In this document: positions 810-64,000 of the stretch, in pieces
Layout of the letters: every line of letters starts with the position of its first letter
How positions within the stretch are numbered: position 1 is the stretch's first letter
Assembly (NCBI GenBank): GCA_951406725.2
Contig: OX597842.1
Location: 20,088,001 to 20,152,000, forward strand
Source of the DNA: Octopus vulgaris
Lineage: Eukaryota
Reading direction: 5' to 3'
DNA length: 64,000 nucleotides
Notes under the pieces: generated by a model
The model's input: the letters and a program-made list of their open reading frames with translations, nothing else
Databases searched by the model: none
Told to the model about the DNA's origin: nothing
Program-made: the position numbers and the translations under genes

Positions 810-1058
810 TCTTTATCTCCAAATTAATGTCTGCAGCTTTAAGGTTGTCATCATTAAATCTCCAAGTCAAACAATTCTCAGTTACGTTTCTGATCCAAAG
901 CGTGGAGGTATCTCCACTATGTGTTACTTTATAGTCAGTGCCGTTAACGCATGTTCTGTCACATTCATATTTATAATTGTGGCACTTCCAAACCACCGGT
1001 CGTATCATGTTCGGTATTGTTATCGAAAGGGTGACGTTTCCATTGAGCACAGCAATTC
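810..1058 (-). CDS. Exon: atypical Ig-like (V-type pattern) domain, module 2 of left gene
   Basis: Acceptor tttctttatttcAG (1060-1059) and donor GTAAGG (809). 249 nt, phase 1/1, open: GIAVLNGNVTLSITIPNMIRPVVWKCHNYKYECDRTCVNGTDYKVTHSGDTSTLWIRNVTENCLTWRFNDDNLKAADINLEIK. Splice sites and length are identical in 3 paralogues. Confidence 0.85.
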
Positions 1059-2814: not shown

Positions 2815-2853
2815 CACTTTGGGTGATGTTATACTTTTGTGTCCTTGAAAAAC
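2815..2853 (-). CDS. 39-nt microexon (A-strand/linker of Ig-like module 2)
   Basis: ttttcatcttttacAG|GT TTT TCA AGG ACA CAA AAG TAT AAC ATC ACC CAA AGT G|GTaaat. Phase 1/1, encodes (S)FSRTQKYNITQS(G). Paralogue of 5656-5694. Confidence 0.75.
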
Positions 2854-3411: not shown

Positions 3412-3431
3412 ATTATAAATCATTTCCTTAC

Positions 3432-3680
3432 TCTTTATCTCCAAATAAATGTCTGCAGCTTTAAGGTTGTAATCATCAAATCTCCAAGTCGAACATTTCT
3501 CAGTTACTTTTTTGATCCAAAGCGTGGAGGTATCTCCTAAATGAGTCACTTTATAGTCACGGCCATCAGCGCATGTCCTGTCACATTCATATTTATAATT
3601 CTGGCACTTCCAAACCACCGGTCGTTTCATATCAGGTATTGTTATCGAAAGGGTGAGGTTTCTATTGAGCACAGCAGGTC
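3432..3680 (-). CDS. Exon: atypical Ig-like domain, module 1 of left gene
   Basis: AG at 3682-3681 and GTAAGG at 3431. 249 nt, phase 1/1: GPAVLNRNLTLSITIPDMKRPVVWKCQNYKYECDRTCADGRDYKVTHLGDTSTLWIKKVTEKCSTWRFDDYNLKAADIYLEIK. Confidence 0.85.
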
Positions 3681-5655: not shown

Positions 5656-5694
5656 CACTTTGGGTGATATTATACTTTTGTGCCCTTGACAAAT
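5656..5694 (-). CDS. 39-nt microexon completing signal peptide and Ig A-strand
   Basis: ttttcatcttttacAG|AT TTG TCA AGG GCA CAA AAG TAT AAT ATC ACC CAA AGT G|GTaaat. Encodes (Y)LSRAQKYNITQS(G) and joins 8100-8145 to 3432-3680 in frame. Confidence 0.8.
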
Positions 5695-8099: not shown

Positions 8100-8145
8100 A
8101 GACAAATGCTGCAAACAATAAGCAGAACAAGATCCATTTAGCCAT
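8100..8145 (-). CDS. First coding exon: signal peptide MAKWILFCLLFAAFV
   Basis: attttttcAG|ATC ATG GCT AAA TGG ATC TTG TTC TGC TTA TTG TTT GCA GCA TTT GTC T|GTAAGT. Phase-1 donor; basic N-region followed by a hydrophobic core. Confidence 0.8.
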
Positions 8146-8339
8146 GATCTGAAAAAATAATTTTGAAAAGCTGCAAAATAACAAAGTTTATAGCGCAGGG
8201 TCCGAGGCTAGTCAGGCTGAGAAAAACAAACAGTCACAATATCATCAGTCACTCTTTAATAGATTTGTGGTCGAGCCTGTGGCATTGGAGATCTTATTCT
8301 TAACTATTTCGAATACTACAGAACGCTGTACAGTAGAGA

Positions 8340-9114: not shown

Positions 9115-9614
9115 GTAAAATTTGAAGAGAGACAGATTTAAACTTTGCACTGTTTCTGCCCCCCCCCCCGCTTTTTTAGTTTTATCAATTACTATACAAC
9201 ACTAAAGCAACTGCATTTTTTGTCTCTTTCTTTCTTCTTGATGAGTGAAAACAAATACCAAATTACAGGTATTTGTATAATTGTGGCTTTCCAGGTAGAA
9301 TCCTGGTTTAAACAGCCCTTATAATTTCAGAAAATTTTTGCAACATACACAAATTAATATAATTATTGAAAAGACAGCATGGTGTTTCACTTTCTGGATC
9401 ATAAAATGAAATATCATCTTAATCATTAATTCAAGCGAATCAATGTCAGAAAATAGCATATCGATATATTACTGATGTTCACCTTAATTTTACGAAATAA
9501 TCTTTAATATATATCTTGTGTTTTTATTACAATACAATCCAATATTTACAACAGAATCTCTTCTATTTGGACAAACCTTATAGTTGTGGCTTGATGCAAT
9601 GGGAAGTTTCAAAA

Positions 9615-11098
9615 ACCAACTGGGAAATACAAACAACGAAAAGAACTTAGTTTCTGAAAGAAAAAAATAAAAGATATTTTTAGAATTTTACTGAAAATGT
9701 ACTGAATTTTTTAAAAATTCAAAAAGTAAAAAGGTTATGAGGGGTTATATGGGGTACTTAAACGAAAATTCCACCAAAAATCAAATTTTCAAACCAATTT
9801 GTTTTAACAGCATAAATGCTTTTATGGGGACAAAAATATTGAAAAACATGAATACATGTTAGAGCGAGGAAGAAACAAGAAAGGTGATTGTGGGATGTGT
9901 TAGAAACAACAGGCAGATCTCCCTTAAATCACACACCTTCCTTTACCCATAACTTTCTGACAAATGGATATTAATGGATATATCGGAATTTGATGTGAAA
10001 AAGTTTTCCGAGGGTGGAGTGAAAAGTTTTGGAAAATTCACATCAGTTGGCTTTATTTCCTCATAACTTTTGGAAAAATGGATATTTCTTTAGTGGAATT
10101 TTCTACAAATATCATTCGGATTGTGAAGGTGATGATTGAAAAACCATACATGTTAGAACCAACTTGGAAATACAAGCAAGAAAAGGAACTTAGTTTCTCT
10201 ACATAAGCTGAAATATAAAATTAAAAAACTATATTTTTGAATATTTCACTGGAAATGTACTGAATTTCGTTTAAATTCCAAAAAGTTAGAAAAGGTTATG
10301 AGGGGTCATATGGGGTTCTTAAACTAGAATTCCACCAAAAATCAAATTTTCAAACCAATTTGTTTTAATAGCATAAATGTTTTTATGGGGACGGCACATA
10401 AAAAGCACCATCCGATCGTGGCCGTTTGCCAGCCTCCCCTGGCACCTGTGCCGGTGACATGTAAAAAGCACCCACTACACTCATGGAGTGGTTGGTGTTA
10501 GGAAGGGCATCCAGCCGTAGAAACATTGCCAGATCAGACTGGGTCTGGTGCAGCCTTCTGGCTTCCCAGAGCCCAGTTGAACCGTCCAACCCATGCTAGC
10601 ATGGAAAGCGGACGCTAAACGATGATGATGATGATGAATACATGTTAGAACCAACTGGGAAATACAAGCAAGAAAAGGAACTTAGTTTCTGTACATAAGC
10701 TGAAATATAAAATTAAAAAACTATATTTTTGAATATTTCACTGAAAATGTGCTGAATTTATTTTTAAATTCCAAAAAGTTAAAAAAGGTTATGAGGGGTC
10801 ATATGGGGTACTTAAACCAGAATTCCACCAAAAATCAAATTTTAAAACCAATTTGTTTTAATAGCATAAATGTTTTTATGGGGATAAAAATATTGAAATA
10901 CAAGCAAGAAAAGGCACTTAGTTTCTCTACATAAGCTGAAATACAGAATTAAAAAACTATATTTTTGAATATTTCACTGAAAATGTACTGAATTTTTTTT
11001 GAATTCCAAAAAGCTAAAAAAGGTTATGAGGTGTCATATGGGGTACTTAAACCAGAATTCCACCAAAAATCAAATTTTCAAACCAATTTGTTTTTAAT
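9615..11098. repeat. Locally reiterated ~200-240 bp AT-rich unit (4 copies)
   Basis: gaaatacaagcaagaaaaggaacttagtttct...aaccaatttgttttaa at about 9615, 10155, 10650 and 10895. In addition, 9810-10135 recurs at 13500-13830. Confidence 0.7.
10395..10636 (+). mobile_element. SINE-like/RTE-tail element family S3 ending in (GAT)n
   Basis: aaaagcacccactacac..ggaagggcatccagc..ccatgctagcatggaaagcggacg..(gat)n. Other copies: 15790-16270 (-), 48413-48620 (+), 53443-53745 (-), 58143-58520 (-). Confidence 0.75.
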
Positions 11099-22496: not shown

Positions 22497-22711
22497 TGTG
22501 GTGTGGTGATGAGGGAGTGTGACAGAGAGTGAGGGAGCGGAAGTGGGTCTTGCAGGTCTCATGCGCCGGCGGAAGAGAACGACGCCAAGACGACAAGACG
22601 CTAGCAAGTTGGCTCAAGGCGAATCCGGCTTCATCTCTACAGGTAAGACCAAATTACACTTCTAATTCTTTTCCTTGTTCTGTTACGCTCCTTTTCACCA
22701 CATCTATCACA
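22497..22711 (+). repeat. 5' LTR (215 bp)
   Basis: tgtggtgtggtgatgagg...catctatcaca; matches the 3' LTR apart from three indels. Confidence 0.92.
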
Positions 22712-22723
22712 AGCTATTTCGGC
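22712..22723 (+). promoter_or_regulatory. Non-canonical primer-binding site, complementary to tRNA-Phe nt 1-12
   Basis: AGCTATTTCGGC directly abuts the LTR. Its reverse complement GCCGAAATAGCT is the 5' end of metazoan tRNA-Phe(GAA) as I recall it from human/Drosophila. There is no TGG start. Confidence 0.75.
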
Positions 22724-22764
22724 AAAATAATCACTCGGTTTCGTGAAAATAAAAAATAAAAATT

Positions 22765-23520
22765 ATGCAGACTGCTATGATTTCACGCGACCCTATAACA
22801 CCGTTTTGCGGCGACACCGACGTGGTCGCTTGGTTGAGGAGGGTGAAGTTGGTGGCGAAGCTACACGGCATAGCTGACCTGGCTAGTTTTATGCCGTTGT
22901 ATTTGGATGGCCCGGCGTTGGCGTTATATCTGGAGATGGAGGAAGCGGACCAACGCAGCGCGGACGAGGTGGAGATCCGACTTATGGAGGCCTTCGCGGA
23001 AGGAATGTTCGAAGCGTACACTCGACTGGGTAGGATGAGGTGGACAGGACAGCAGGTGGACGTGTTCGCCGGCGAGCTTAGAAGGTTGGCAAAACTTGCG
23101 GGATATGAGGGAGAGTCGCTAGAACGCACGGTCAGGTTAGCGTTCGTGACCGGCTTTCCCGACATCATGTCGGTCGAGCTACAGAAGCTCCCGAACGTGC
23201 GGTCGATGCCGATGGCCGAGATTATATCGCGGGCACGTGTACTGGTGTCGTGCAGCAGGTCGACGTCGGTAGCAGCGACTGCAACGTCGAAAAGTGGCCC
23301 AGCTAGGAGCAACGGAGAGGGGCTGGGGAAAGAACGTGTGCGGTCGTTTAAGGGACAGTGTTTCCGGTGCCAGGGCCCACACATGGTCCGTGACTGCGCG
23401 TCGCCCAAGCCCGAGGTGATTTGCTACCGGTGCCGAGAGCCGGGGCATGTGGCCAGCGAGTGTCTGCGGGGAAACGGACCGCGGGAGACTACTGCGCCGG
23501 TAGTTGTCCCTTTGGATTAG
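22765..23520 (+). CDS. gag: Gag with two CCHC zinc knuckles
   Basis: 251-aa ORF containing CFRCQGPHMVRDC and CYRCREPGHVASEC. Confidence 0.9.
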   Translation: MQTAMISRDPITPFCGDTDVVAWLRRVKLVAKLHGIADLASFMPLYLDGPALALYLEMEEADQRSADEVEIRLMEAFAEGMFEAYTRLGRMRWTGQQVDVFAGELRRLAKLAGYEGESLERTVRLAFVTGFPDIMSVELQKLPNVRSMPMAEIISRARVLVSCSRSTSVAATATSKSGPARSNGEGLGKERVRSFKGQCFRCQGPHMVRDCASPKPEVICYRCREPGHVASECLRGNGPRETTAPVVVPLD

Positions 23521-26379: not shown

Positions 26380-26415
26380 GGAAGCCGGTTCAGTGATCTA
26401 TAGATCATGGGGGCG

Positions 26416-26676
26416 TGTGGTGTGGTGATGAGGGAGGGAGCGGAAGTGGGTCTTGCAGGTCTCGCAGGGTGCATGCGCCGGCGGAAGCGGAAGTCAGCGA
26501 CAGAACGCACGTGCGGCATCGACGAGGGCAGTCAGACTCGAGAACGACGCCAAGACGACAAGACGCTAGCAAGTTGGCTCAAGGCGAATCCGGCTTCATC
26601 TCTACAGGTAAGACCAAATTACACTTCTAATTCTTTTCCTTGTTCTGTTACGCTCCTTTTCACCACATCTATCACA
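26416..26676 (+). repeat. 3' LTR (261 bp)
   Basis: Preceded only by TGGGGGCG and a 14-bp palindrome. Confidence 0.92.
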
Positions 26677-27221
26677 GAGTGCAAAGTTCTCCACCAATAG
26701 AATTAACCACTGCAGCTTCGACAGTCGGGATGTGTGGGCGAGAGGGTACTATGTTCAAAAATAAACATCATTTGGTCTATTACCGTCTCAATTGATTCTC
26801 GTATACATACGTATTATACATACGGACCCAAACAAGCCTATATATATATACAGAGGTGGGCAGAGTTAATCTAAAAGTTAACTTCGTTAATTCTTTGGAA
26901 AATCAACGGAAGTTACCGTTAAGGTTTATTGAACAAGAGGCATACCTACAGTTTAATACCCCACCGACTTTGTTGCCTCAAAACTTCCAAGAAGTTCATA
27001 CCTTTTAACGAAACTTTCACCAAAGGCGCATGAGTGGCTGTGTGGTAAGTAGCTTGCTTACCAATCACATGGTTCCGGGTTCATTCCCACTGCTTGACAC
27101 ATTGGGCAAGTGTCTTCCACGGGTCGACCAAAGCATTGTGAGTGGATTTGGTAGATAAAAACAGAACAGGCACACACACACACGAACAAGCACGCACACA
27201 CTATGGAAATTACACGGAATC

Positions 27222-33268: not shown

Positions 33269-33646
33269 TTATTTGCTGCTAGTGTATTTGGTGACGGCCT
33301 TGGTACCCTCAGAGACGGCGTGTTTGGCCAACTCACCAGGAAGGAGAAGACGGACAGCAGTCTGCACCTCACGGCTACTGATGGTCGAACGTTTGTTGTA
33401 GTGAGCCAAGCGGCTGGATTCAGAAGCTATTCTTTCGAACAGATCGTTGACAAAACTGTTCATGATGGACATAGCTTTGCTGGAGATGCCAGTGTCCGGG
33501 TGGACTTGCTTCATCACTTTGTAGATGTAGATGGAGTAACTTTCCTTCCTCTTCTTCTTACGTTTCTTGTCCCCGTCAGGGCGAGAGGTCTTGGCCTTGG
33601 AGGCCTTCTTGGCTCCTTTCGAAGCAGTTGCTGGTGCTGGTGGCAT
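33269..33646 (-). CDS. H2B: Histone H2B (125 aa, intact ORF; promoter lost)
   Basis: [65 protein letters not shown]. Intronless, with a stem-loop downstream. Confidence 0.95.
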
Positions 33647-33665
33647 AATGTCACTTGCGAAAGCT

Positions 33666-34620
33666 ATTTCTTTATTATCCATAAGGATTAACACAGATGG
33701 GGACAATACAATGGTTTGGGGTCAAAACATGGAACTTTTTACAATGAAACCGGATGAGTTATGTACAGTGGTGTTATAATGAAATCGAAAAACAAACAAC
33801 AAGAAAGGACAATGAAGATAAAAGAACAGGGTAGCCGACCCCACGAGCCCTGTTATTTCAGCAGAGACTTTTGGTAAGTGATCATGCAGGGCCTTTCACA
33901 CCCAGCATTCGTGCTACATGCGTCCATCTTTTTTTGAATACAGACTTAGTCAGACACCTTTTCTCCAGCTCCACTTTTTACTTCAGATGGAATTTGAAGA
34001 AGTTTGTTAGGTCGGTGCCAGAGATCATGGTGTCTGACATTAAACCTTTCACTCTTGTCTTCCATATAACCTCTTTCGCAACTGCTACTGTCACGAGAAA
34101 GCAATGCTTACCTTCGTTCGTCATGAAACCAGGTGGGTCAATTTTAAGGATTGACTCAGACGACAGCTGTACTCTTCCCTCGTCCGACAACAGGTGTTCG
34201 GCATAAACCCACACTTCCGAAATCTCCGGACATTGAACGATGGCGTGCAGGACTGTTTCCACGTCCTGTCCGGCATTGCCCGAGTTGCGGAAGCGTACGA
34301 GAGCCTTTCGGCACTCCGAATACCACATATTTGATTTCAGTCTGCGACGAAACCAGGTTTCTCTACCACCAAAACTGGCAAAGCTGGGGAATGTTTGTCT
34401 TGCGAGCGGAGACCACACCCGTTCACCTTCCAGGTAGAGCCAAAGATGCCTGAGCCTCAGCGCATGTCTGCGCATCAACAGCCAAGGCATCCCTAACCCA
34501 CCCTTTAACGGTTGTTGACAACAGATAGAACGTCTCACAAGAGGTTTGGAGCCTTTCCACAAAAAGCGGAAGATTTGCCTCTCCAACTTGTTTACCCACG
34601 AATCCGGACAGGGGACGACG
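33666..34620 (-). mobile_element. 5'-truncated Tx1/L1-type LINE
   Basis: [43 protein letters not shown] (post-RT and zinc-binding region, CxxC apparently deleted). 3' UTR ends aataaagaaat about 20 nt upstream of the H2B ATG. Confidence 0.85.
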
Positions 34621-34894
34621 TAAGGGAAATTATGCCCAACGTGTCGGTGCCGGAGCCCCAGTCTACTTGGCCGCTGTAATGGAATATTTGGCTGCTGAGG
34701 TGTTGGAATTGGCAGGAAATGCTGCCAGAGATAACAAGAAATCGAGAATCATTCCCCGTCACTTGCAGTTGGCCATCCGTAACGACGAAGAATTGAACAA
34801 ACTTTTGTCCGGAGTGACCATCGCCCAGGGTGGTGTTCTTCCCAACATTCAGGCTGTTCTTCTGCCCAAGAAAACCCAGAAGGCTTCTAAGTAA
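34619..34894 (+). pseudogene. H2A: Histone H2A lacking the first ~35 codons
   Basis: [74 protein letters not shown]. The upstream sequence is LINE. Confidence 0.92.
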
Positions 34895-38026: not shown

Positions 38027-38713
38027 CTAATGAATGAGTCTGTGAGTGGTCAAGTGATCTATTTCAGAGAATGATTCACCACAGGTGTCACAATGATGTG
38101 ACTTCACCCCTGAATGAACACCTTTGTGTCTACTTAAATGTCCCTTTTGAGTGAATGATTTACTGCAGATATCACAGTGGTAAGGTTTCTCACCTGTATG
38201 GATAAATCTGTGAGTGGATAAGTCACCACTTTGAGAGAATGATTTATCACAGATATCACATTGATATGGCTTTTCACCTGTATGAGTACGTTTATGTACA
38301 ATTACACCACTTTTGTGAGTGAATGATTTACCACAGATATCACACTGAAATGGTTTCTCTCCTGTATGGATAACCTTGTGAGCAGCTAAGTTACCATCTC
38401 GAGAGAATGATTTACCACAGATATCACACTGAAATGGTTTCTCTCCTGTATGAATACGTTTATGTACAGTTACAGCACTTCTTCGAGCAAATGTTTTACT
38501 GCAGATATCACACTGATATGGTTTCTCCCCTGTGTTAGTAAGTCTGTGTGTATCCAAGTTAAATTTCATGGAGAATGATTTACCACAGATATCACAGTGA
38601 TATGGTTTCTCTCCTGTATGAGTAAGTTTGTGAGTAGCTATGTAACTCTTTAGAGAGAATGATTTACCACAGATATCACAGTCGTATACAGATTTTCCTC
38701 TTTCTTTTGGCAT
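38027..38713 (-). CDS. C2H2 zinc-finger protein, 8 fingers (paralogue A)
   Basis: ATG at 38713 (MPKERGK), with CDICGKSF..H..H TGEKP repeats. Finger 2 has H>N. Likely acceptor near 39128. Confidence 0.85.
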   Translation of the reverse strand: MPKERGKSVYDCDICGKSFSLKSYIATHKLTHTGEKPYHCDICGKSFSMKFNLDTHRLTNTGEKPYQCDICSKTFARRSAVTVHKRIHTGEKPFQCDICGKSFSRDGNLAAHKVIHTGEKPFQCDICGKSFTHKSGVIVHKRTHTGEKPYQCDICDKSFSQSGDLSTHRFIHTGEKPYHCDICSKSFTQKGHLSRHKGVHSGVKSHHCDTCGESFSEIDHLTTHRLIH

Positions 38714-40789
38714 CTCTGCAGCTAAAACTAACAAAACTCCAAGATTCTCACACAATTCCTCTTTCTGTAATTTTTTTCTTCAACAAAATGGTCTGGAAAT
38801 TTCATTTCTTCTTGTTTCTATATTTTATTCCTAACAAATGTTACAACTGCCATATTTTTATCAAATATAAGCTTTGCTGATATCTTAAGATGTTGCAAAT
38901 GTCTTTGTAAATTTATCCAAGTTTATTCAGAATCCAAATTTAGGTTTTACCCATTTCAGAGTGAATCCAAGAAATTTCACCAATAATGTCACTCAGAAGA
39001 AATATTTTACTGAAATTCACAGTTAATTTACATAAACAGGGTTCTTATATCCAGTTCTGTGTAACATCGTCTTCAAAATATGATAAATATTGATGACGCT
39101 TCTGCAGTAAATTTCCTCTGATATTCTGAAATAAGAGAGAAACAACAGTTTAACACAGAGTGTAGCTTTGGTTATGACAAAGGCTTGGTGTTCATTTATA
39201 TACGACATTTACTGCTACAATGATAAATCTCATTTAAGAAACAGATTGGGTTTATTTACATTTCTGAAGAGAAAAAGGGATCTTTTCGGTTTGACCGGCA
39301 GTTTTTTCTAGTGGTGTCATATGAAATTGTCACCCATAATTATGACCCTAGTATCAATCTATTGCATTTCAATCTGTTTTAGGGTTAGGAGTGGGGGGAA
39401 GGGTAATTTTCTTTTTTTTTCCACAAATGTAAATAAACCCAATCTATTTCTTAAACGAGGGACATATTCATACTGCCTTTAGGCAGTACAAAAACAACAA
39501 AAAAGTGGAAGGTGCAGTTATGACAAAAGAAAAGCAGGACAAAAACGATGCATGCAAATGGGTTGGCTGGAGGTAAATCTAGATGGAAAAGCATGATAAA
39601 TTTATGAGAACCCGCTGGGACATTAATATATATATAATTATAATAAAGGGTTATTTGCAACAAGTTGCTTAAACCACATACCGAAAATATTAGAAATAGC
39701 AGCCAAATAGGCTACTATTACTATTACTACAAAAATAAGTCTCCACAAACAACAGTATTTGCAACCCAAACAACAGTATTTGCAACCCGTATATGGTAAA
39801 AGGAATGAAGACAACGAAATCACACAGTCTACTTTATATATATATATATACACATGAGCAAAATACCCCCTCCTCCCGGCCGTCCAATGGAATGTGCTGA
39901 GTTGTCAAACATTTAAACCAAATTTTCTCAAGATAACTTGTCCGACCGCTCCATAGGCCTCCCCTTTGAGAAACACTGATTTAACCTAAATTAGGGACAC
40001 CAGCAAAAGAAGAAATAAAGATAGACTTTTTTTCTATTCCAAAGAAAAACGATTTTATTCACAAAAATATGCAACCGAAGAGTTTAAAGTACCAGTAATT
40101 ATAAGGCTGTTGACTGGGAGAACACAAACATGGTTTAAACAGTAAGCTTGGCAGGAAAGAAACGTGCCTTTAAGCAGGACAAAAACAACAAAAAATGGAA
40201 GGTACAGTTATGTACAGGTTGACGGAAGAAAACCAGGACAAAAACGGCTTTATTGATCGCATTCTCACCTGGAATATATTATTGTAATTTTTTCTCACCT
40301 GGAAACGATTTTTGTAATTTTTTCAAAGACTAATACACGCCCTGATACAGTCGGTATCTACAAATCAAATTTAAGTGCAATCGGATGGAGGATGCCTGAA
40401 ATCCAAGAAGACACACAGACAGAACGGATTTTATATAAGAGATTATGAAAAACAGCTTTTATTAAAAATATCAGAATGGTAGATATTGATGAGTATAAAT
40501 AAAAAATATAGTGTTTTGTTATAACATGCTGTTATATCTCCTTTATCAGCTGGATATATTTATTGTTATATAAGATATTCCTTTCAACAAATGACTTTTG
40601 ATATTGATACAGTCACTCTTCTCTATGATGAGAAATATATCTGTAGTTAATTGTCTTTTTTCAGAGAAGGATATACCACAGAATCAGTTAGATGGTTTCT
40701 CTTCTATATCAATGTGTGTCTGTGTTTATCTAAGAGATTTATTTGAGAGAACCATTCACCACAGATATCACAATGACATGGTTTCTCTC

Positions 40790-42901
40790 CTAATGAATGA
40801 GTCTGTGAGTGGTCCAGTGATCTATTTCAGAGAATGATTCACCACAGATATCACAGTGATATGGCTTTTCACCTGTATGAGTAAGTTTGTGATTAGTTAA
40901 TTTAGCTTTTACAGAGAATGATTCACCACAGGTGTCACAATGATGTGATTTCATTCCTGAATGAACACCTTTGTGTCTACTTAAATGTCCCTTTTGAATG
41001 AATGATTTACTGCAGATATCACAGTGATATGGCTTTTCACCTGTATGAGTACGTTTGTGATTAGTTAATTTAGCTTTTACAGAGAATGATTCACCACAGG
41101 TGTCACAATGATGTGACTTCACCCCTGAATGAATACCTTTGTGTCTACTTAATTGTCCCTTTTGAATGAATGATTTACTGCAGATATCACAGTGATATGG
41201 TTTCTCACCTGTATGAGTACGTTTGTGTTTAGTTAAGACAACCTTTAGAGTGAATGATTTCCCACAGATATCACAGTGGTAAGGTTTCTCACCTGTATGG
41301 ATAAACCTGTGAGTGGATAAGTCACCACTTTGAGAGAATGATTTATCACAGATATCACATTGATATGGTTTCTCACCTGTATGAGTACGTTTGTGTACAG
41401 TTACAGCACTTCTGTGAGTGAATGATTTACCACAGATATCACAGGAATATGGCTTTTCTCCTGTATGAGTAAATTTGTGAGTAGCTAAGTCACTATTTCG
41501 AGAGAAGGATTTACCACAGATATCACACTGGTAAGGTTTCTCCCCTGTATGAGTAAGTCTGTGCTTACTTAAATTACATTGCAAGGAGAATGATTTACCA
41601 CAGATATCACACTGATGGGGTTTCTCGCCAGTGTGAGTATGTTTGTGTTTAGCTAAGTCACCATTTCGAGAGAATGATTTACCACAGATATCACACTGGT
41701 AAGGTTTGTCGCCTGTATGAGTAAGTTTGTGCGTAACTAAGTAACCGCATCGAGAGAATGATTTACTACAGATATCACAGTGATATGGTTTTTCTCCTGT
41801 ATGAATACGTTTATGTATAGTTACAGTACTTCTTTGAGTGAATGATTTACCACAGATATCACACTGATAAGGTTTCTCCCCTGTATGAATAACTTTGTGT
41901 GTCACTAAGTTAACTCTCACAGAGAATGATTTACCACAGATATCACACTGATAAGGTTTCTCACCTGTATGAATAAGTTTGTGTGTAGTTAAGTTACCTT
42001 TCAAAGAAAATAATTTACCACAGATATCACACTGATAAGGTTTCTTGCCTGTATGAGTATGTCTGTGTTTAGCTAAGGCACCATTTCGAGAGAATGATTT
42101 ACCGCAGATATCACACTGATATGGTTTCTCCCCAGTGTGAGTAAGTTTGTGTGTATCCAAGTTAAATTTCATGGAGAATGATTTACCACAGATATCACAG
42201 TGATATGGTTTCTCTCCTGTATGAATACGTCTGTGACATGTTAAACCACTACAATTAGAAAATGATTTACCACAAATATCACAATGATATGGTTTATCGC
42301 CTGTATGAATACGTTTATGTACAGTTACAGCACTTCTTCGAGCGAATGATTTATCACAAATATCACACTGATAAGGTTTCTCACCTGTATGAGTAAGTTT
42401 GTGTTTAGCTAAGTTAACTCTCATGGAGAATGATTTACCACAGATATCACAATGATATGGTTTCTCTCCTGTGTGAGTAAGTGTCTAGTCAAAAGACCAC
42501 TTTGAGAGAATGATTTACCACAGATATCACACTGATATGGTTTCTCACCTGTATGAATATGTTTATGTACAGTTACAGCACTTCTGCGAATTAATGATTT
42601 ACTGCAGATATCACAATGATATGGTTTCTCTCGTGTATGAGTAAGTTTGTGTTTAGTTATGTGACAGTTTTGAGAGAATGATTTACCACAGATATCATAC
42701 TGATATAGTTTTTGCTCTGTGTGAATATTTCTGTTAATAGTTAGATTAAGTTTATTTTTAATATGATTTACCACAGATATCACAATGATGTGGCTTCTCT
42801 CCTGTATGAGTAAATTTGTGAGTAGCTAAGTTAACTTTCACAGAGAATGATTTACCACAGATATCACAGTCATATACAGATTTTCCTCTTTCTTTTGGCA
42901 T
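40790..42901 (-). pseudogene. C2H2 zinc-finger paralogue B, ~25 fingers; two 5' frameshifts, then a 544-aa ORF with 19 full fingers
   Basis: Same leader, N-terminus and 3' UTR as paralogue A. Frame breaks near 42760 and 42480. ORF 40790-42424 is intact. Confidence 0.8.
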
Positions 42902-48416: not shown

Positions 48417-49184
48417 CGTTTGCCAGCGTCGTGTGGCATGTAAAAAGCACCCACTACACTCATGGAGTGGTTGGCATTAGGAAGGGCATCCAGCCATAGA
48501 AACATTGCCAAATCAGACTGGGCCTGGTGCAGCCTTCTGGCTTCCCAGACCCCAGTTGCACCATCCAACCCATGCTAGCATGGAAAGCGGACGCTAAATG
48601 ATGATGATGATGATGATGATATATATATATATATATATATATGTAATAAATGTATATCTGAACCACACTGTTCCAACATGGCCTGGCAGAGGTGTTCAGG
48701 TTTTTTACTTTTACCCAGGAGCAGATAGGTCAATTACATCAGACACCATTGTTCAATTAGTAATTATTTCATTGATCCCCGAAAGATGGAAGGCAAAGTC
48801 GACCTTGGCAGGATATGAACCCAGAATGTAAAGACAGATGAAATTCCGATATTTGATGAGATATCCGACCTCTGCGAATTTCTTAAGATCCCCCCCACCC
48901 TCCACACAAACGCACGCAAACACATATTTTCTACATTGTGGTTTTGAGACTTTTTTAATACTGATTAGAGATCAATAACTGTTTTATGTTGTCGAGTAAA
49001 TCAGAATTTGTTGTCTGAAGACATAGAAATAAAATCGAACAAAATATTCAGCAAAAACAAAATCCTGGTGTCTGAAATCGAATGAGATATTTCTGTTTCT
49101 GAAAGTGAAAGTAATTCAGACAATAACTCAGTGACAAAGAAAACGAACTTGTATCTGACTGTAACAAATGTTTGAATACTGTTT

Positions 49185-51217
49185 AGGAGCGGCTGTGTGG
49201 TAAGTAGCTTGTTTACCAAACACATGGTTCCAGGTTCAGTCCCACTGCATGGCACCTTGGGCAAGTGTCTTATACTATAGCCTCGGGCCAACCAAAGCCT
49301 TGTGAGTGGATTTGGTAGACGGAAACTGAAAGAAGCCCATTGTATGTATATATATATATATAGGTGTAGGAGCGGCTGTGTGGTAAGTAGCTTGGTTACC
49401 AACCACATGGTTCCGGGTTCAGTCCCACTGCGTGGCACCTTGGACAAATATCTTCTACTATAGCCTCGGGCCGACCAAATCCTTGTGAGTGGATTTGGTA
49501 GACGGAAACTGAAAGAAGCCCATCGTATGTATATATATATATAGGTGTAGGAGCGGCTGTGTGGTAAGTAGCTTGGTTACCAACCACATGGTTCCGGGTT
49601 CAGTCCCACTGCATGGCACCTTGGGCAAGTGTCTTCTACTATAGCCTCGGGACGACCAAAGCCTTGTGAGTTGATTTGGTAGACGGAAACTGAAAGAAGC
49701 CCATCGTATGTATATATATATAGGTGTAGGAGCGGCTGTGTGGTAAGTAGCTTGGTTACCAACCACATGGTTCCGGGTTCAGTCCCACTGCATGGCACCT
49801 TGGGCAAGTGTCTTCTACTATAGCCTCGGGACGACCAAAGCCTTGTGAGTGGATTTGGTAGACGGAAACTGAAAGAAGCCCATCGTATGTATATATATAT
49901 ATAGGTGTAGGAGCGGCTGTGTGGTAAGTAGCTTGGTTACCAACCACATGGTTCCGGGTTCAGTCCCACTGCATGGCACCTTGGGCAAGTGTCTTCTACT
50001 ATAGCCTCGGGACGACCAAAGCCTTGTGAGTGGATTTGGTAGACGGAAACTGAAAGAAGCCCATCGTATGTATATATATATATATAGGTGTTGGAGCGGC
50101 TGTGTGGTAAGTAGCTTGTTTACCAACCACATGGTTCCGGGTTCAGTCCCACTGCATGGCACCTTGGGCAAGTGTCTTCTAGTATAGCCTCGGGACGACC
50201 AAAGCCTTGTGAGTGGATTTGGTAGACGGAAACTGAAAGAAGCCCATCATATGTATATATATATATAGGTGTAGGAGCGGCTGTGTGGTAAGTAGCTTGG
50301 TTACCAACCACATGGTTCCGGGTTCAGTCCCACTGCATGGCACCTTGGGCAAGTGTCTTCTACTATAGCCTGGGGACGACCAAAGCCTTGTGAGTGGATT
50401 TGGTAGACGGAAACTGAAAGAAGCCCATCGTATGTATATATATATATATAGGTGTTGGAGCGGCTGTGTGGTAAGTAGCTTGTTTACCAACCACATGGTT
50501 CCGGGTTCAGTCCCACTGCATGGCACCTTGGGCAAGTGTCTTCTAGTATAGCCTCGGGACGACCAAAGCCTTGTGAGTGGATTTGGTAGACGGAAACTGA
50601 AAGAAGCCCATCGTATGTATATATATATATATATAGGTGTAGGAGTGGCTGTGTGGTAAGTAGCTTGGTTACCAACCACATGGTTCCGGGTTCAGTCCCA
50701 CTGCATGGCTCCTTGGGCAAGTGTCTTCTACTATAGCCTCGGGACGACCAAAGCCTTGTGAGTGGATTTGGTAGACGGAAACTGAAAGAAGCCCATCGTA
50801 TGTATATATATATATATAGGTGTAGGAGAGGCTGTGTGGTAAGTAGCTTGGTTACCAACCACATGGTTCCGGGTTCAGTCCCACTGCATGGCACCTTGGG
50901 CAAGTGTCTTATACTATAGCCTCGGGACGACCAAAGCCTTGTGTGTGCATTTGGTAGACGGAAACTGAAAGAAGCCTGTTGTATATATGTATATATATAT
51001 ATATGTATGTGTGTGTTTGTGTTTATCCCCCTAGCATTGCTTGACAACCGATGCTGGTGTGTTTATGTCCCCGTGACTTAGCGGTTCGGTAAAAGAGACC
51101 GATAGAATAAGTACTGGGCTTACAAAGAATAAGTCCCAGGGTCGAGTTGCTCGATTAAAGGCAGTGCTCCAGCATGGCCGCAGTCAAATGACTGAAACAA
51201 GTAAAAAGAGAAAAGAG
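49185..51217 (+). repeat. S2 SINE with 10 tandem heads (~179-185 bp) and one tail
   Basis: Heads at about 49186, 49369, 49550, 49729, 49910, 50093, 50274, 50457, 50642 and 50825, separated by variable (TA)n. Confidence 0.9.
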
Positions 51218-53972: not shown

Positions 53973-54618
53973 CTTTAGATGCTGAGAAATGTCGAATCTT
54001 CCTTTTCGTGTCTTTCCTCAAATATGGATGGGTTTTGTCTTGCAATGATGAATTTGGTCCTCCACCAACTTCAGTCCCAATTCTCTCAGAATCTTTCAGA
54101 CCCTGATAGCTGTTTGAGGGTTTGCCATGAACATATTGTATACATTTATTCCTGCAACATTGAGTATGGTGAAGAAAACTGTAACTGGCCAACATCGAGT
54201 ATTTCTGGAAACATTGTACATGGAACACAATTGATCCACCATGGGGCCTACCCCTCCTTTAGTACTGTTGTAGAAGGTTCTAATCTCTGGTTTTCTTTTT
54301 TCTTTCGTACTTACATCAATTGCAGCATCATGATGCATTGTACTCCATAGGACGACATTTTTACCTTTCGTGGGAACACATGGGGTCAATGTAACATCCT
54401 TCTGGAAACCAAACAAGCTTGTATATTCAGTTCTGCCTCTTGTGGCAACAAACTGAGGGGGAAGTTCTATCTTGTTCTTTCTGAAAGGGTCAACAAATGT
54501 TAATCTATAATTCTTCAAGAGATTAACTCTAAATCCATAACTTGTAAACCAATTATCCATGAAAATATTTCTTCCAGACCCTTTTATAAGAGACCCCAAC
54601 CATTTTACCACTGCTGCT

Positions 54619-54986
54619 GTTGCTGTTGAGTGTAGTGATCTTCATCCTAGTGGGAGAAGTCCGAAACGTGGTCCTTTGCTATTTGTAAGACCCGCAGGAG
54701 AGAAAGCAGGTCAACCCCCGACACTGAGAGCATCGACGGATGGATGAATGCGCATCCAGGCTCAGTGGTTGCGTAAGAAGTCGGGGACAAGAAACAGGAA
54801 GAAAGAGTGAGAGAAAGTTGGGGCGAAAGAGTACAACAGGGGTCGTCACCATCCCCTGCCGGAACCTTGTGTAGCTTTAGGTGTTTTTCGCTCAATAAAC
54901 ACATACAACGCCTGGTCTGGAAATCAAAACCGCGATCCTCTGACCACGAGTCCGCTGCCCTGACCATTGGGCCATTGCGCCTGCAC
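54619..54986 (-). mobile_element. SINE family S1, tail type C
   Basis: S1 head with a distinct tail ending (cag/caa)n. TSD TACCACTGCTGCT at 54606-54618 and 54987-54999. Confidence 0.8.
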
Positions 54987-55456: not shown

Positions 55457-57916
55457 TTTTACTTGTTTCAGTCATTTGACTGCGGCCATGCTGGAGCACC
55501 GCCTTTTAGTCGAGCAAATCGACCCCAAGACTTATTCTTTGTAAGCCTCGTACTTATTCTATCGGTCTCTTTTCCCGAACTGCTAAGTTACGGGGATGTA
55601 ATCACACCAGCATCGGTTGTCAAGTGATGTTGGGGGCACAAACATAGACACACAAACACACACGTTTGTATACATATATACGACGGGCTTCTTTCAGTTT
55701 CCGTCTATCAAATCCACTCACAAGGCTTTGGTTGGCCTGAGGCTATAGTAGAAGACACTTGCCCAAGATGCCACGCAGTGGGACTGAACCCAGAACTATG
55801 TGGTTGGTAAGCAAGCTACTTACCACACAGCCACTACTACGCCTACATATATACGACGGGCTTCTTTCAGTTTCCGTCTACAAAATCCACTCACAAGGCT
55901 TTGGTTGGCCTGAGGCTATAGTAGAAGACACTTGCCCAAGATGCCACGCAGTGGGACTGAACCCAGAACCATGTGGTTGGTAAGGAAGCTACTTACCACA
56001 CAGCCACTCCTACACCTACATATATACGACGGGCTTCTTTCAGTTTCCGTCTATCAAATCCACTCACAAGGCTTTGGTTGGCCTGAGGCTATAGTAGAAG
56101 ACACTTTCCTAAGATGCCACGCAGTGGGACTGAACCCGGAACCATGTGGTTGGTAAGCAAGCTACTTACCACACAGCCACTCCTACGCCTACATATATAC
56201 GACGGGCTTCTTTCAGTTTCCGTCTATCAAATCCACTCACAAGGCTTTGGTTGGCCTGAGGCTATAGTAGAAGACACTTGCCCAAGATGCCACGCAGTGG
56301 GACTGAACCCAGAACTATGTGGTTGGTAAGCAAGCTACTTACCACACAGCCACTCCTATGCCTACATATATACGACGGGCTTCTTTCAGTTTCCGTCTAT
56401 CAAATCCACTCACAAGGCTTTGGTTGGCCTGAGGCTATAGTAGAAGACACTTGCCCAAGATGCCACGCAGTGGGACTGAACCCAGAACCATGTGGTTGGT
56501 AAGCAAGCTACTTACCACACAGCCACTCCTACACCTACATATATACGACGGGCTTCTTTCAGTTTCCGTCTATCAAATCCACTCACAAGGCTTTGGTTGG
56601 CCTGAGGCTATAGTAGAAGACACTTTCCTAAGATGCCACGCAGTGGGACTGAACCCGGAACCATGTGGTTGGTAAGCAAGCTACTTACCACACAGCCACT
56701 CCTACGCCTACATATATACGACGGGCTTCTTTCAGTTTCCGTCTATCAAATCCACTCACAAGGCTTTGGTTGGCCTGAGGCTATAGTAGAAGACACTTGC
56801 CCAAGATGCCACGCAGTGGGACTGAACCCAGAACTATGTGGTTGGTAAGCAAGCTACTTACCACACAGCCACTACTACGCCTACATATATACGACGGGCT
56901 TCTTTCAGTTTCCGTCTACAAAATCCACTCACAAGGCTTTGGTTGGCCTGAGGCTATAGTAGAAGACACTTGCCCAAGATGCCACGCAGTGGGACTGAAC
57001 CCAGAACTATGTGGTTGGTAAGCAAGCTACTTACCACACAGCCACTCCTACACCTACATATATACGACGGGCTTCTTTCAGTTTCCGTCTATCAAATCCA
57101 CTCACAAGGCTTTGGTTGGCCTGAGGCTATAGTAGAAGACACTTTCCTAAGATGCCACGCAGTGAGACTGAACCCGGAACCATGTGGTTGGTAAGCAAGC
57201 TACTTACCACACAGCCACTCCTACGCCTACATATATACGACGGGCTTCTTTCAGTTTCCGTCTATCAAATCCACTCACAAGGCTTTGGTTGGCCTGAGGC
57301 TATAGTAGAAGACACTTGCCCAAGATGCCACGCAGTGGGACTGAACCCGGAACCATGTGGTTGGTAAGCAAGCTACTTACCACACAGCCACTCCTATGCC
57401 TACATATATACGACGGGCTTCTTTCAGTTTACGTCTATCAAATCCACTCACAAGGCTTTGGTTGGCCCCAGTCTATAGTAGAAGAAACTCGCCCAAGATG
57501 CCACGCAGTGGGACTGAACCCGGAACCATGTGGTTGGTAAGCAAGCTACTTACCACACAGCCACTCCTATGCCTACATATATACGACGGGCTTCTTTCAG
57601 TTTACGTCTATCAAATCCACTCACAAGGCTTTGGTTGGCCCCAGGCTATAGTAGAAGACACTCGCCCAAGATGCCACACAGTGTGACTGAACCCAGAACT
57701 ATGTGGTTGGTAAGCAAGCTACTTACCACACAGCCACTCCTACGCCTACATATATACGACGGGCTTCTTTCAGTTTCCGTCTACCAAATCCACTCACAAG
57801 GCTTTGGTCGGCCTGAGGCTATAGTAGAAGACACTTGCCCAAGATGCCACGCAGTGGGACTGAACCCGGAACCATGTGGTTGGTAAGCAAGCTACTTACC
57901 ACACAGCCACTCCTGC
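55457..57916 (-). repeat. S2 SINE with 13 tandem 173-bp heads and one tail
   Basis: cgacgggcttctttcag recurs every 173 bp from 55681 to 57757. Variants recur with a 519-bp period. Confidence 0.92.
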
Positions 57917-58854
57917 ACCTAAGTGTCTCTTTTTACCTATCTTCATATTTTCGTTGTTTATTGTCAATGTAGATATTACTGCAAGCTTCGAATTCATTCA
58001 GAAGTTCTTGTCTGAGAAACAAAGACCTTTACAGCAGACACAGGTTTTGCTGCTCCTCTTGGGTCCTGGGGAATCCTGGTAATTGTTCTGTGCACGTGTA
58101 TGCCGTGGAAGGCATGGGGGAATTCCTTTCCAGAAAGTTCCATTATCATCATCATCATCGTTTAACGTCTGTTTTCCATGCTAGCATGGGTTGGACGGTT
58201 CAACTGGGGTCTGGGAAGCCAGGGGCTGCACCAGGCTCCAGTCTGATCTAGCAGTGTTTCTACAGCTGGATGCCCTTCCTAACGCCAACCACTCCGTGGG
58301 TGTAGTAGGTGCTTTTAATGTGTCACCGGCACAGAAGCCAGTCAAGGCAGCGCTGACATCGGCTATGTTTGAATGGTGCTTTTCATGTGCCACCACCATG
58401 GAGGCCAGTCAGGGCGGCGCTGGCTACGGCCACGTTCGGATGGTTCCCTTATGTGCCACCGACACTGGTATCACAGCTACAAATTCCATTGATGTTGATC
58501 GATTGCAATTTTGATTTTGATTTGCCCCAAAAATGTTTTTCTCTGTTCCTGGAAGTCTGCTGTTCATCTTCATCATCAGCTTCTTCCTTTCCTTCTAAAG
58601 AATCATCTGGTGAAGTCTGCAACATGCCATCTGCTTCAGTTCCTCCCTCATCATCTCTTATTTCTTCCTCAGCTTTACTCTCTTCTTTTGGAAGCAATTT
58701 CTTGTCTTACGATCTTTTGACCTGGGGCACAACGAGCATCTTTTTATGGAATCTTCATGATAACATCTTGGAGGTACCAGGTTCAATTCTCTTCAGATTC
58801 CTCTTCATTTGGTTCTTCGTCAAGAAATGATTCTCATTCTTCTATGTCTAATTC

Positions 58855-60352: not shown

Positions 60353-61396
60353 TTTTTCTTGCAAATTCTGTAAAGAGTTTTTATTTTTTTTAATAAGTAA
60401 ATATTTTGATTTTGTTGGCTTATTTTTCTGTTGTTTTTATCTTATATAACATGTCTTTACATGATACACATATAATACAATACCACATTAAAATACAAAT
60501 CCTAAACCAAAAGAAACACAAACAGGAGGTGCAGCAAGTACCCTTATAGGGATCACCGAACCATTCTGTAAGGCGAGGCGCCAACAATGGTAAGAACTTC
60601 ACTGTGGCAAATGTCAAAGGTGGAAGAAATGGGTCACACTTCATTTCCTATGCTTAAGGATTTTGTTCTCGTTGGCTACGGAAGCAGTGACCCTTTGATT
60701 ATAATTGAAGATATTTATGCTAAAGCAATGGGTATACATATGCAAATGTACCCCACCGACTTTGTTTCTTCATAACTTCTGGAAAAATGGGTATTTTTAA
60801 ATGAAAATTTTCAGAAATACCTTTAAGAAAGTGTAGATTGCAATTATATTGGAATAGCACACGTTGGTGGGACACCACACACACACATACACATCACATT
60901 CTTTTGCATTCTAAGATTCAGTCAAAATTTTCAAATTTGGAATATTCATGTAATTTTCCATGCTGAATCTGCTACCGCTCACTTTTTCTGGAAAGAATAT
61001 TTTAAAAAGTGGACCTTTTCTGTTTGTGTTTTTCCCTTCAGCTCCTTCGGTTTCAAATTTATTGATTTCAAGTTTAGTGTATTGATGTAGTTTTGTCTGT
61101 TAATTATATAAATGAAATTAGTTGTTGTCCTAAATTGATAAATATACAGTTAATAGCTTTTAAGATTTTTAAATTCCCAGTAAAAGACGGAGCAGAGTTT
61201 TGGAAAAAATATTGCTAAAATATGGATATAATTTATTTAAAAAACCAACTATGCCAATGCAGTCAGTGAAAGTCTTAATCTGATAAATAGAATTATTTTT
61301 TCCTTTTAGAGGATAAATATAGATAAAAAAACACAAATTGTAGCGTTCTTATACAAATGTTTATTTCTTAAAATATTTGCAGCAGAAGAAAGAGAG

Positions 61397-61494
61397 TCAG
61401 ACAAGGATTGCAGCAAGGATGAGTATGCCAAGAATGATTTCGACAATCTCGAGTGTTCTGAGGGGTCTTGATCCACTAAGTTCAGGTTTCGGAT
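61397..61494 (-). CDS. Terminal exon: GPI-anchor-signal-like C-terminus
   Basis: ttgtttgtcaattgcAG|AT CCG AAA CCT... Phase 1; encodes (N)PKPELSGSRPLRTLEIVEIILGILILAAILV-stop. Small-residue S-G-S site, spacer, then a hydrophobic end with no cytoplasmic tail. Confidence 0.75.
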
Positions 61495-61789: not shown

Positions 61790-64000
61790 CTCCCAGTACT
61801 GCTTGATAACCGATGCTGGTGTGTCTACGTCCACGTTAATTAGCGGTTTGGCAAAAGAGAACCGATAGAATAAGTACTAGGCTTACAAAGAATAAATCCT
61901 GGGGTCGATTTGCTCGACAAAAGGCGGTGCTCCAGCATGGCCACAGTCAAATGACTGAAACAAGTAAAAAGAGAAAGAGAAAGAGAATATAACCCCCCCA
62001 CACACACACACCTTGGTATTGACCCCCTCATCCTTTGCCCTTGTGGCAAATAAAAGAAACCCTTATTATATACAACTATCACCTGAGTCCATTGTGAAGA
62101 TGGCCCCTCTACTTTCCTTCAACCAAGAAGGGCAACCAGTATTTATCTGCTCGGGGCCCATGGCAAAGGGGATCATATAGTGGACATGTCTGAAAGGGCT
62201 GAAGACCAGCAATTGCCATTTTGTCAAAACCCTAATAAACTTTGTCAGGTTTCACTTGAAGAGGAAAATCAAGGTGGAGAGGTAAGTGCTGGCTTCCAAG
62301 CAGTTTGTTGAAAGGTGGGTGAGAGGGGTGAGCATTACCTGAGTGAATGGGCCTTCTCTCAGAGTGTACCTGTATATTGGAGAGGAAAGACCAGGAGAGG
62401 GCATCCACCCTGGTGGTCAGGGAGACCATGGATTTTGTGGGCTTTCTTTACGTGTGGCCCTTCAAAGTCCCCAAACTATCAGGGATGTTACTTTGAATTT
62501 CTTTTATTCTTTGTATGACTTTTTACATGCTAAAACCCACACTGGACCCTCCCGAATGTTTTGCTTTGAGTTAGCCCTCTGTGGTTAATAAAGAAATTAC
62601 TATAAATCATTTCCTTACTCTTTATCTCCAAATCAATTCTTCCAATATTAAGGTTGTCATCTTCAAATTTCCAAGTCAAACATTTCTCAGTTACTTTTTT
62701 GATCCAAAGCGTGGAGGTATCTCTTAAATGAGTCACTTTATAGTCAGGGCCATCAGCGCATGTCCTGTCACATTCATATTTATAATTCTGGCACTTCCAA
62801 ACCACCGGTCGTTTCATATTAGGTATTGTTATCGAAAGGGTGAGGTTTCTATTGAGCACAGCAGGTCCTGAAATAACGAAATCAGTTAAGAAGTTTGCTT
62901 CCAAATCATATGGTCCTGGGTTCAGTCCCACTACACAGCACCTTGGGAAAGTGTCTTCTACTACAGCATCAGCCTTGTGAGTGGATTTGGTAGATGGAAA
63001 TTGAAAGAAGCCCATTGTATGTATATGTGTGTGTGTTTGTGTATGTATATGTGTGTGTATATATATACATACACACTTGTGTGTTTCAAAGCCTTGTGAG
63101 TGTATTTGATAGATGGAAACTGAAAGAAGCCCATTATTTATATATATGTAAATAGAAATAGAAAATTATTATTTCTAAGTCACTGAACAAGAAACATTCA
63201 GTAACATTAATCGAGAGTAAAGATTACTTGCCAACATAATATGGCAGTCCTAGCTAGGATGATTGTTACTGTTATTTAGCCCCAGGAAACACTGCCTCCA
63301 GCTGGGTATATGACACGCTATCTATGTCTTATGGGATGCTAAACTCCCTTGTTTGAAAATATAAGGATGCAGCTAGTGCGTCATATAGCCAGCTGGAGAC
63401 GATGTTTACTAGGGCTAAAGAACAGTAACAATCGTCCTAACCAGGACCGCCACATTATGTTGGCGAATAATCTTTACCCTAGAGTACTGTTACTCAATGT
63501 CTTGTTCAGAGATTTAGAAATAATTTTCTATTTGTTAGATCAGTGACTGTGTGTCACTTTGAAAAGTATATATTTTGGACTAGAGTTTAGTGGAGTCATC
63601 TCTAGCTGAGCAGTTATTCTGTGCTGATGAAGGGAAATAACCCAGAGACCATTGGTATGCAGATAGATGATGTTTCCTAAGACTAAATTTACAGTATCAT
63701 TCGTCCTAACCAAGACTGCCACATTATGTTGGCAAATATATATATATATAAGTTCAGCAAAAATTTAGATTCAAATGAATATGGTACTTAATTTAGATGC
63801 ACCAGAATTTTGTATGGTGTTATCCATAGAAATCCGTGGGGTGATTATAATGAAAATAAGCAACAAGAATGACTCCAGTAATTTGGTACGATCGTTTCGT
63901 ACTACATCATTTTATTAAATTTTGTAAGTATTACAACAGTTTTAAAATACTGAGCACTCATCAGCCAATTATAGAGGTTTTCTGTTAATACAAAAATTTT
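61790..64000. repeat. Segmental duplication of the window start
   Basis: 61790-63015 matches 1-1206 (and 2899-3828). 63015-64000 matches 3828-4805. Confidence 0.9.
62619..62867 (-). CDS. Exon: atypical Ig-like domain of right-hand paralogue
   Basis: AG at 62869-62868 and GT at 62618. 249 nt, phase 1/1: GPAVLNRNLTLSITIPNMKRPVVWKCQNYKYECDRTCADGPDYKVTHLRDTSTLWIKKVTEKCLTWKFEDDNLNIGRIDLEIK. Confidence 0.85.

Follow-up and report, generated by a model that had tools for sequence, protein, structure and literature searches.

Results

Ig exons of two genes in the window

We analyzed a 64,000-nucleotide stretch of Octopus vulgaris DNA (the window), in which three immunoglobulin (Ig) exons, designated A, B and C, belong to two genes (Table 1). 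All three have an open reading on the minus strand only, AG/GT borders and phase 1 at both ends, and tblastn located no additional Ig exons of the family in the 64-kb window. Each 83-codon exon encodes part of an Ig domain, with strand A encoded on a separate 39-nt micro-exon, giving a full domain of 96 residues. Mapping of family proteins onto the window yields an A–C gene that runs from the probable 5' untranslated exon through the signal-peptide exon, the first micro-exon, A and the second micro-exon to C, and domain A is found without any change in the O. vulgaris protein P0017. Exon B ends the series of Ig exons in a separate gene, whose 5' exons fall past the window end; its micro-exon is expected near 64843–64881. 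Because the downstream context is common to C and B, the tail exon of C should lie about 315 nt beyond the start of the window. Positions 61801–63066, around B, are 91% identical to 12–1257, around C. As the last part of the signal peptide and strand A are both carried by the micro-exon, the internal linkers are recycled leader ends. All exon borders that we checked are in phase 1, and the 39-nt and 249-nt exons can therefore duplicate or splice in frame as units. A transmembrane-like match at 14899–14919 was discarded as a chance resemblance.

Table 1. Positions of the Ig exons and associated features in the window
Feature	Position	Strand	Description
Ig exon B (focal)	62619..62867	-	249 nt, phase 1-1; strands A' to G of predicted V/I-type Ig domain
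Ig exon A	3432..3680	-	supported as mosaic: B-like codons 1–61, C-like codons 66–76; switch between 3496 and 3482
Ig exon C	810..1058	-	second domain of A gene; AAD-type G strand; two extra sequons
Codons 73–78 of B (NIGRID)	62632..62649	-	end of FG loop and strand G
Micro-exon, domain A	5656..5694	-	39 nt, phase 1-1; signal peptide end and strand A
Micro-exon, domain C	2815..2853	-	39 nt, phase 1-1; interdomain linker and strand A; duplicate of 5656..5694
Signal-peptide exon, A–C gene	8100..8148	-	phase 1 at end
Probable 5' untranslated exon, A–C gene	9577..9653	-	translated in several public models
Tail exon of B gene	61361..61494	-	homologue of family transmembrane exon with in-frame TGA (ending at 61397)
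Duplicated segment around B	62086..64000		94% identity to 2899–4805 (around A)

An intact divergent histone H2B lies at 33269–33721 (minus strand), and an H2A at 34529–34894 (plus strand) has its N-terminal part replaced by a reverse-transcriptase-like insertion (33978–34748, minus strand). The public model P0017 splices the histone H2B onto Ig gene A, a fusion that is probably an annotation artefact. Two related C2H2 zinc-finger arrays (38027–38779 and 40790–42825, minus strand) stand among the Ig genes and are the same neighbors in public models of other copies, which suggests joint duplication of Ig and zinc-finger genes. An LTR retrotransposon at about 22528–26677 (plus strand), with long gag and pol frames, is a recent insertion, since its terminal repeats are identical at 137/137 bases. 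Tandem arrays at 49181–51007 and 55671–57921, with units of ~181 bp and ~173 bp in opposite orientation, both derive from a dispersed SINE-like repeat that is also present just upstream of each Ig exon (e.g. 62887–63026). The open frame at 54096–54641 (minus strand) appears to resemble a fragment of a piggyBac-type transposase.

The tail of the B gene

In the tail exon of the B gene the TGA occupies a conserved glycine within the transmembrane (TM) segment and leaves a 32-residue tail that is hydrophobic at its end; the exon also carries a Gly-to-Glu change, and past the TGA the former TM end and a short cytoplasmic tail are still legible. In GPI signals, small residues are combined with a polar spacer and a hydrophobic end. 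The remnant tail of B shows all three features and has no cytoplasmic part, from which we infer a GPI-type signal. The family contains both TM tails and separate GPI-type tails, and the O. vulgaris protein P0015 stops at the same residue as B. It is also conceivable that the B gene is decaying, the stop in the TM exon being disabling and B or A accumulating replacements unconstrained, as the TGA, the Gly-to-Glu change and a region rich in broken mobile elements with a 5'-disrupted histone H2A might suggest. We consider this improbable: splice sites and frame are intact, B equals domain 1 of the O. sinensis protein P0005 at 79/82 residues (20/20 at the end), the truncated tail recurs in P0015, the remnant fits a GPI signal, and other members have GPI-type tails.

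An octopod family of tandem Ig domains

A protein search with B retrieved 18 proteins (34 candidates), all named as Octopus "uncharacterized" or "hypothetical" proteins. Profile searches kept 39/5308 and 28/7144 candidates, of which all the named ones are from Octopus or Argonauta, and an index-free search gave 31 representatives at E<=0.001, with P0034, P0037, P0038 and P0041 excluded as long or unrelated low-score matches. Every named member carries an "uncharacterized" or "hypothetical" label, and named loci occur in three Octopus species and in Argonauta; P0017 and P0048 lie on the O. vulgaris contig. The proteins consist of a signal peptide, one to six tandem 96-residue domains and a TM segment or a hydrophobic GPI-type C-terminus. 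In the clade closest to the window genes only a few residues follow the TM segment, with no signaling motif visible and no ITIM or ITAM. Members with tandem domains lie mostly on one contig per species, and a few on small unplaced scaffolds. Relatives with one V-like and one C-type Ig domain (P0018, P0028, P0032, P0035, P0039, P0060 and P0061) are found on a different, much larger chromosome, and in Argonauta too; this form is likely the ancestral, nectin/CD200R-like state that gave rise to the tandem cluster.

The exon encodes a V/I-type Ig fold with variable F and G strands

The AlphaFold model of a B-like domain (P0005 domain 1) has a pLDDT of 95.4 and, by DSSP, the strand order A, A', B, C, C', D, E, F, G, with only two bridge residues at the C'' position. 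The Foldseek matches listed are antibody V domains and titin/obscurin-type I-set domains. The best VIA match has a Z of 10.9 (rmsd 2.3 over 88 residues), and matches to V and I sets are tied at Z ~10–11. The initial annotation had called these exons Ig from their letters, and the model confirms the predicted domain as a V/I-type Ig fold, a two-sheet beta-sandwich. This assignment rests on structure, because the single-exon Pfam search matched an Ig family in 0/3 cases, the single-exon PDB sequence search gave no Ig match, and the family profile gave 0 matches to the PDB at E<=1, CEACAM1 N domain included. A Pfam I-set match at E<=0.1 was obtained for 8/31 family members; the multi-domain proteins P0001–P0003 exceed the I-set profile cut-off only through summed repeats. 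The ESM Atlas returned unnamed mollusc clusters at 0.92–0.93 and V-set clusters at 0.87–0.89, which serve as leads only. CEACAM N domains were absent among the 50 VIA matches listed for either model, which is not an exclusion, and a homodimer prediction for the B-like domain scored 0.00 ("no answer") and is uninformative either way.

The canonical B–F disulfide is missing: cysteine occurs at the B position in 0/65 and at the F position in 1/65 domains, with Leu and Phe instead. The C-strand Trp is invariant in the 31-row alignment, and an aromatic residue is kept at the tyrosine-corner position. Two other cysteine pairs stand out. Cys25 and Cys62 are co-present or co-absent in 60/65 domains, which are not independent of one another, and the 31-row alignment shows no variation at Cys32 or Cys36; in the 19- and 65-domain sets, extracted by a Cys-x3-Cys anchor and freed of domains truncated at the protein end or with indels near the anchor, the invariance of Cys32 and Cys36 is by construction. 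Two non-canonical disulfides, C25–C62 and C32–C36, are thus probable.

Where do the variable residues lie? In DSSP order, the A–B differences fall in BC (16), C''–D (40), DE (48), EF (63), strand F (66, 68), the five-residue FG loop (70, 73) and strand G (74, 75, 76, 78). Over strands F and G of the 19 close domains, invariant hydrophobics at 65, 67, 77, 79 and 81 alternate with variable neighbors at 66, 68, 74, 76, 78 and 80, and the variable side chains therefore most likely point outward on the front sheet. In these domains 39/82 positions are invariant, as is the core, and strands C and C' are nearly so. The variable end had been described as the FG, or CDR3-equivalent, surface; the F–G end is indeed variable, but only codons 70 and 73 belong to the FG loop, and the rest lie mostly on strands F and G, i.e. 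on the sheet face and not at the loop tip. Across the family, positions 1, 16, 26, 40 and 47 are highly variable as well.

Exon A is a mosaic of B-like and C-like segments

A and B differ by 15 nucleotides in 12/82 codons (16, 40, 48, 63, 66, 68, 70, 73, 74, 75, 76 and 78), with synonymous codons = 0, and 9/12 of the changed codons fall in 63–78, i.e. within the last 21; our recount thus reproduces the initial tally. Equally, A and C differ at 17 residues as first reported, by 27 nucleotides, and C has sequons at 38 and 57 besides the one at 7, which is the only one in A and B. The further statement that all differences between the exons change the amino acid holds for the A–B pair only: A–C includes 4 synonymous codons, and B–C (33 nucleotides, 20 residue changes) includes 5. 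The clustering of A–B differences exceeds chance, with scan-corrected p=0.00015 for a 16-codon window and 0.0025 for a 21-codon window. At exon nt 221–230 of A and B (62647–62638), 7/10 bases differ; part of this stretch also admits an alignment with a one-base insertion and a one-base deletion, and some of the apparent substitutions may therefore stem from one complex event.

We compared A and B with C as the third sequence in an informative-site test. Up to nt 185 of the exon, 21/22 informative sites group A with B, and after nt 185, 9/10 group A with C; in a max-chi permutation test 0/20000 permutations reached this contrast at the nucleotide level, and p=0.00035 at the codon level. A and B diverge by 3.0% in the upstream intron and by 1.6% over the first 185 nt of the exon, then by 18.8% over its last 64 nt and by 4.1% further downstream. 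In the set of 65 domains, the nearest to A is B over codons 1–62 (59/62) and C, which lies 2.6 kb away, over codons 63–82 (16/20). Because A is nearest B and then C, while B matches P0005 domain 1 throughout, A is the recombinant. These comparisons support A as a mosaic, and recombination as the main source of the A–B clustering. A single clean crossover is not fully supported, as the intron downstream of A is mixed (12 sites group A with C, 12 group A with B) and not cleanly C-like.

The mosaicism extends beyond these exons. In a PHI-like test on 19 distinct close domains with 33 informative columns, 0/20000 permutations were as low, and G-strand forms recur on different backgrounds: NIGRID in 7/19, AAD types in 5/19 and VGKI types in 3/19 of these domains. 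AAD is found in 8/65 domains, three of which belong to a subfamily only 36–43/62 identical elsewhere, and this divergent AAD-bearing subfamily is a plausible older source. O. vulgaris and O. sinensis have each kept several G-strand forms. Segment trees agree with mosaicism, those built on 20 residues having little support and being illustrative only. The patchwork gene conversion first suggested for the locus hence survives, with its direction reversed: NIGRID is the commonest form, which rules it out as a novel patch in B, and the shuffled patch is the AAD-type 3' end of A, with C as its closest match over codons 63–82.

Could the mosaic be a product of the assembly, with A and B being alleles or else repeats collapsed into a chimeric consensus? 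Repeats are very abundant at the locus and public models do fuse neighboring genes, as P0017 does with H2B and A. Yet the A–B introns differ by 3–4%, the downstream context differs, A has private changes at codons 63, 70 and 78, and the same mosaic patterns recur in the assemblies of two species, which makes an assembly artefact very improbable.

Possible selection on codons 63–82

For A–B, the absence of synonymous change gives p=0.012–0.025 per nucleotide and 0.029–0.053 per codon in counting tests, or 0.036–0.16 when allowing for the choice among three pairs; a GY94 likelihood ratio test (LRT) on A–B alone gives p=0.0045. With only three nucleotide sequences entering these tests, whole-exon omega is 1.56 for the three copies (p=0.33), 0.90 for A–C and 1.25 for B–C. 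By region, three-copy omega is 0.79 for codons 1–62 and at its upper bound for codons 63–82 (GY94 LRT p=0.0045). All 11/11 codon changes in 63–82 are non-synonymous, compared with 15/20 in 1–62 (5 synonymous); the chance of 11/11 is 0.047–0.10, codon-level p values for the window span 0.047–0.15, and p ranges from 0.005 to 0.1 across tests, for a window that was picked post hoc, holds ~11 synonymous sites and includes multi-nucleotide codons. Mean entropy in the 19 close domains is 0.60 in 63–82 and 0.45 in 1–62, a modest excess. The diversifying selection proposed in the initial annotation is thus suggestive for codons 63–82 and does not extend to the whole exon, nor to the A–C and B–C pairs, where omega is near 1.

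Exon divergence exceeds that of the flanking introns, at 10.8% for A–C and 13.3% for B–C versus 4.2–4.5% (p=3e-4 and 1e-5, respectively), and A–C synonymous divergence is also higher than that of the intron (6/55 versus 29/683, p=0.04). Since both exon and synonymous divergence exceed intron divergence, the exon segments are older than their flanks, which fits selective retention amid homogenization as well as import from older donors without positive selection. Selective retention amid homogenization is an MHC-like pattern.

A neutral or relaxed patchwork would offer another account, in which a short tract is converted from a diverged donor into a recently duplicated, weakly constrained gene and the lack of synonymous change is due to chance, the tract being poor in synonymous sites. 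The near-unity omega of A–C and B–C, the codon-level p of 0.05–0.15 for codons 63–82, the sharing of AAD with a divergent subfamily and the picking of A–B from three pairs are all compatible with it. We nevertheless regard it as rather unlikely, though a serious contender, in view of the 39/82 invariant positions, the alternation of variable ones on F and G, the persistence of several G-strand forms in O. vulgaris and O. sinensis, and the likelihood test for codons 63–82 (p=0.0045).

Discussion

The explanation that we find best, and to which we give a reasonable though not strong degree of belief, is that of shuffled Ig cassettes with a diversified F–G face and a CEACAM-like role. Exon B is one cassette within a cluster of octopod cell-surface proteins of the Ig superfamily, and the apparent burst of replacements between A and B would be mostly one exchange, via conversion or unequal crossing-over, that juxtaposed two old G-strand forms. 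All differences between these two forms change the residue and lie on the face of strands F and G that most likely points outward. That alternative F–G faces are kept by diversifying selection on a putative binding face seems to us slightly better than an even proposition.

What might such proteins do? By analogy, and with somewhat less than even confidence, we propose adhesion or recognition proteins on the host cell surface, the front face of which would be bound by microbes or parasites. Tail-less TM, GPI-anchored or sheddable versions could then act as decoys, and reshuffling could renew the repertoire. With its predicted fold, defined variable positions and natural TM-to-GPI-type switch, the family is a concrete candidate for immune or self recognition in the octopus, and a CEACAM-like role, if true, would mean that a mollusc has converged closely on the strategy of the CEACAMs.

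The same evolutionary mechanism may alternatively serve self/non-self or cell-identity recognition, through homophilic or heterophilic F–G binding specific to each isoform, as in Hydractinia Alr1/Alr2, and combinatorial splicing of leaders, cassettes and tails. In O. sinensis RefSeq models (P0002–P0007, P0050 and P0052; LOC115225115, LOC115225116 and LOC115225109), identical domains are reused with different leaders, neighbors and tails, even across gene identifiers: domain D7 occurs with a GPI-type tail and also with D3-D4-D6-TM, D8 has two leaders, and D2 and D9 are skipped in some isoforms. Such reuse possibly reflects cassette splicing, or else a mapping artefact among near-identical paralogues. 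Identity recognition would agree with this reuse, with the uniform phase 1 of the exon borders checked, with the interspersed C2H2 zinc-finger genes, and with the clustered V/I-set Alr genes, which likewise have no B–F disulfide and have alternative tails (PMC9546547, in part). However, automated isoforms among 90–95% identical paralogues can reflect mis-mapped reads, the tails of the closest members are a few residues long with no signaling motif visible, and profile searches gave no sequence link to Alr, and we accordingly think this function unlikely. Equally doubtful in our estimate, though attractive, is a full octopod combinatorial Ig recognition locus, in which phase-1 cassettes with alternative leaders and TM or GPI tails would combine germ-line shuffling of sub-exon F–G segments with somatic cassette splicing across neighboring "genes". 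If true, it would provide a large pathogen or self/non-self repertoire and an independently evolved cephalopod counterpart of Dscam, Alr and CEACAM.

We found no literature on this family, either by 12 locus identifiers or prefixes or by topic, nor any description of a diversified cephalopod Ig receptor cluster in the literature covered. The main text of a skin-mucus proteome paper, as far as covered, names none of the loci (PMC11431876), and the word "immunoglobulin" is absent from the main text of the chromosomal cephalopod genome paper, which in the parts covered discusses protocadherin, C2H2, S-crystallin and other clusters (PMC9068888). The family and its convergence on CEACAM features therefore appear new, and the mechanism, conversion plus selection on an IgV face, is already known.

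Comparison with known systems

Within molluscs, the Biomphalaria FREPs and polymorphic transmembrane clusters are, in the source excerpts covered, diversified recognition genes in clusters like the octopus family; unlike FREPs, the octopus proteins have no fibrinogen or lectin domain, and no such proteins were among the homology matches. Chelicerate shortened Dscam and vertebrate clustered protocadherins have tandem variable cassettes with their own leaders, joinable to shared tails. In comparison to these, the putative cassette splicing in the octopus comes from automated gene models. Cephalopod protocadherins themselves diversify through whole-gene duplication (PMC9068888, in part). In fold, the two-domain model of P0035 matches CD200RLa, butyrophilin (BTN) and nectin-3 at Z 13.4–13.6, with identities of 9–19% that indicate a shared fold only. 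CD2/CD58, CD200R, nectin and butyrophilin have V–C ectodomains, whereas in the octopus window genes the C-type domain is lost and the V-like domain repeated. These four groups of proteins bind through the AGFCC' face.

Hydractinia Alr1 and Alr2, allorecognition genes whose homophilic binding is allele-specific and governs fusion or rejection, offer an invertebrate parallel. Similar to the octopus genes, the Alr genes form a V/I-set cluster without canonical cysteines, which has alternative TM/tail exons and in which conversion is suspected (PMC9546547, in part). In contrast to Alr, the octopus domain keeps the C-strand Trp and the tyrosine-corner aromatic, its tails are tiny, and no homology was detected. 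The Alr ectodomain also combines V-set, I-set and Fn3-like ECS parts, while the octopus proteins either carry the 96-residue domain in tandem or pair a single copy of it with a C-type Ig domain, without a Fn3-like ECS.

The CEACAM V domain, like that of the octopus, lacks the B–F disulfide. Strands C and C' of CEACAM are variable and part of the same face, whereas they are nearly invariant in the octopus. No sequence homology between the two was detected and the octopus family is not a CEACAM member; mosaicism among its Ig domains is a behavior that it has in common with CEACAM and not proof of membership. The octopus proteins carry one to six V-like domains in tandem, where CEACAMs have a single N domain with C2 domains, and each octopus domain is split over a micro-exon and a 249-nt exon and has the probable C25–C62 and C32–C36 disulfides. 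CEACAMs, to which microbial adhesins bind, include paired ITIM/ITAM receptors; no ITIM or ITAM was seen in the close octopus clade. What the two share is the pattern of diversification. CEACAM/PSG genes, with their IgV-type N domain, are as the octopus family a clustered, lineage-specific expansion of the Ig superfamily with conversion among ligand-binding domains (PMC8860441 and PMC2832619, each in part), and the binding domains of primate CEACAMs evolve by selection together with gene conversion (PMC8860441, in part). Mammalian GPI-anchored CEACAMs arose repeatedly via stops in the TM exon (PMC2832619, in part), an arrangement to which the predicted GPI-type tail of the B gene can be compared. 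Finally, CEACAMs combine selection on the binding surface with TM, GPI-anchored and secreted forms (PMC8860441 and PMC2832619, in part), and in the octopus family TM and predicted GPI-type tails occur together with suggestive evidence of selection.
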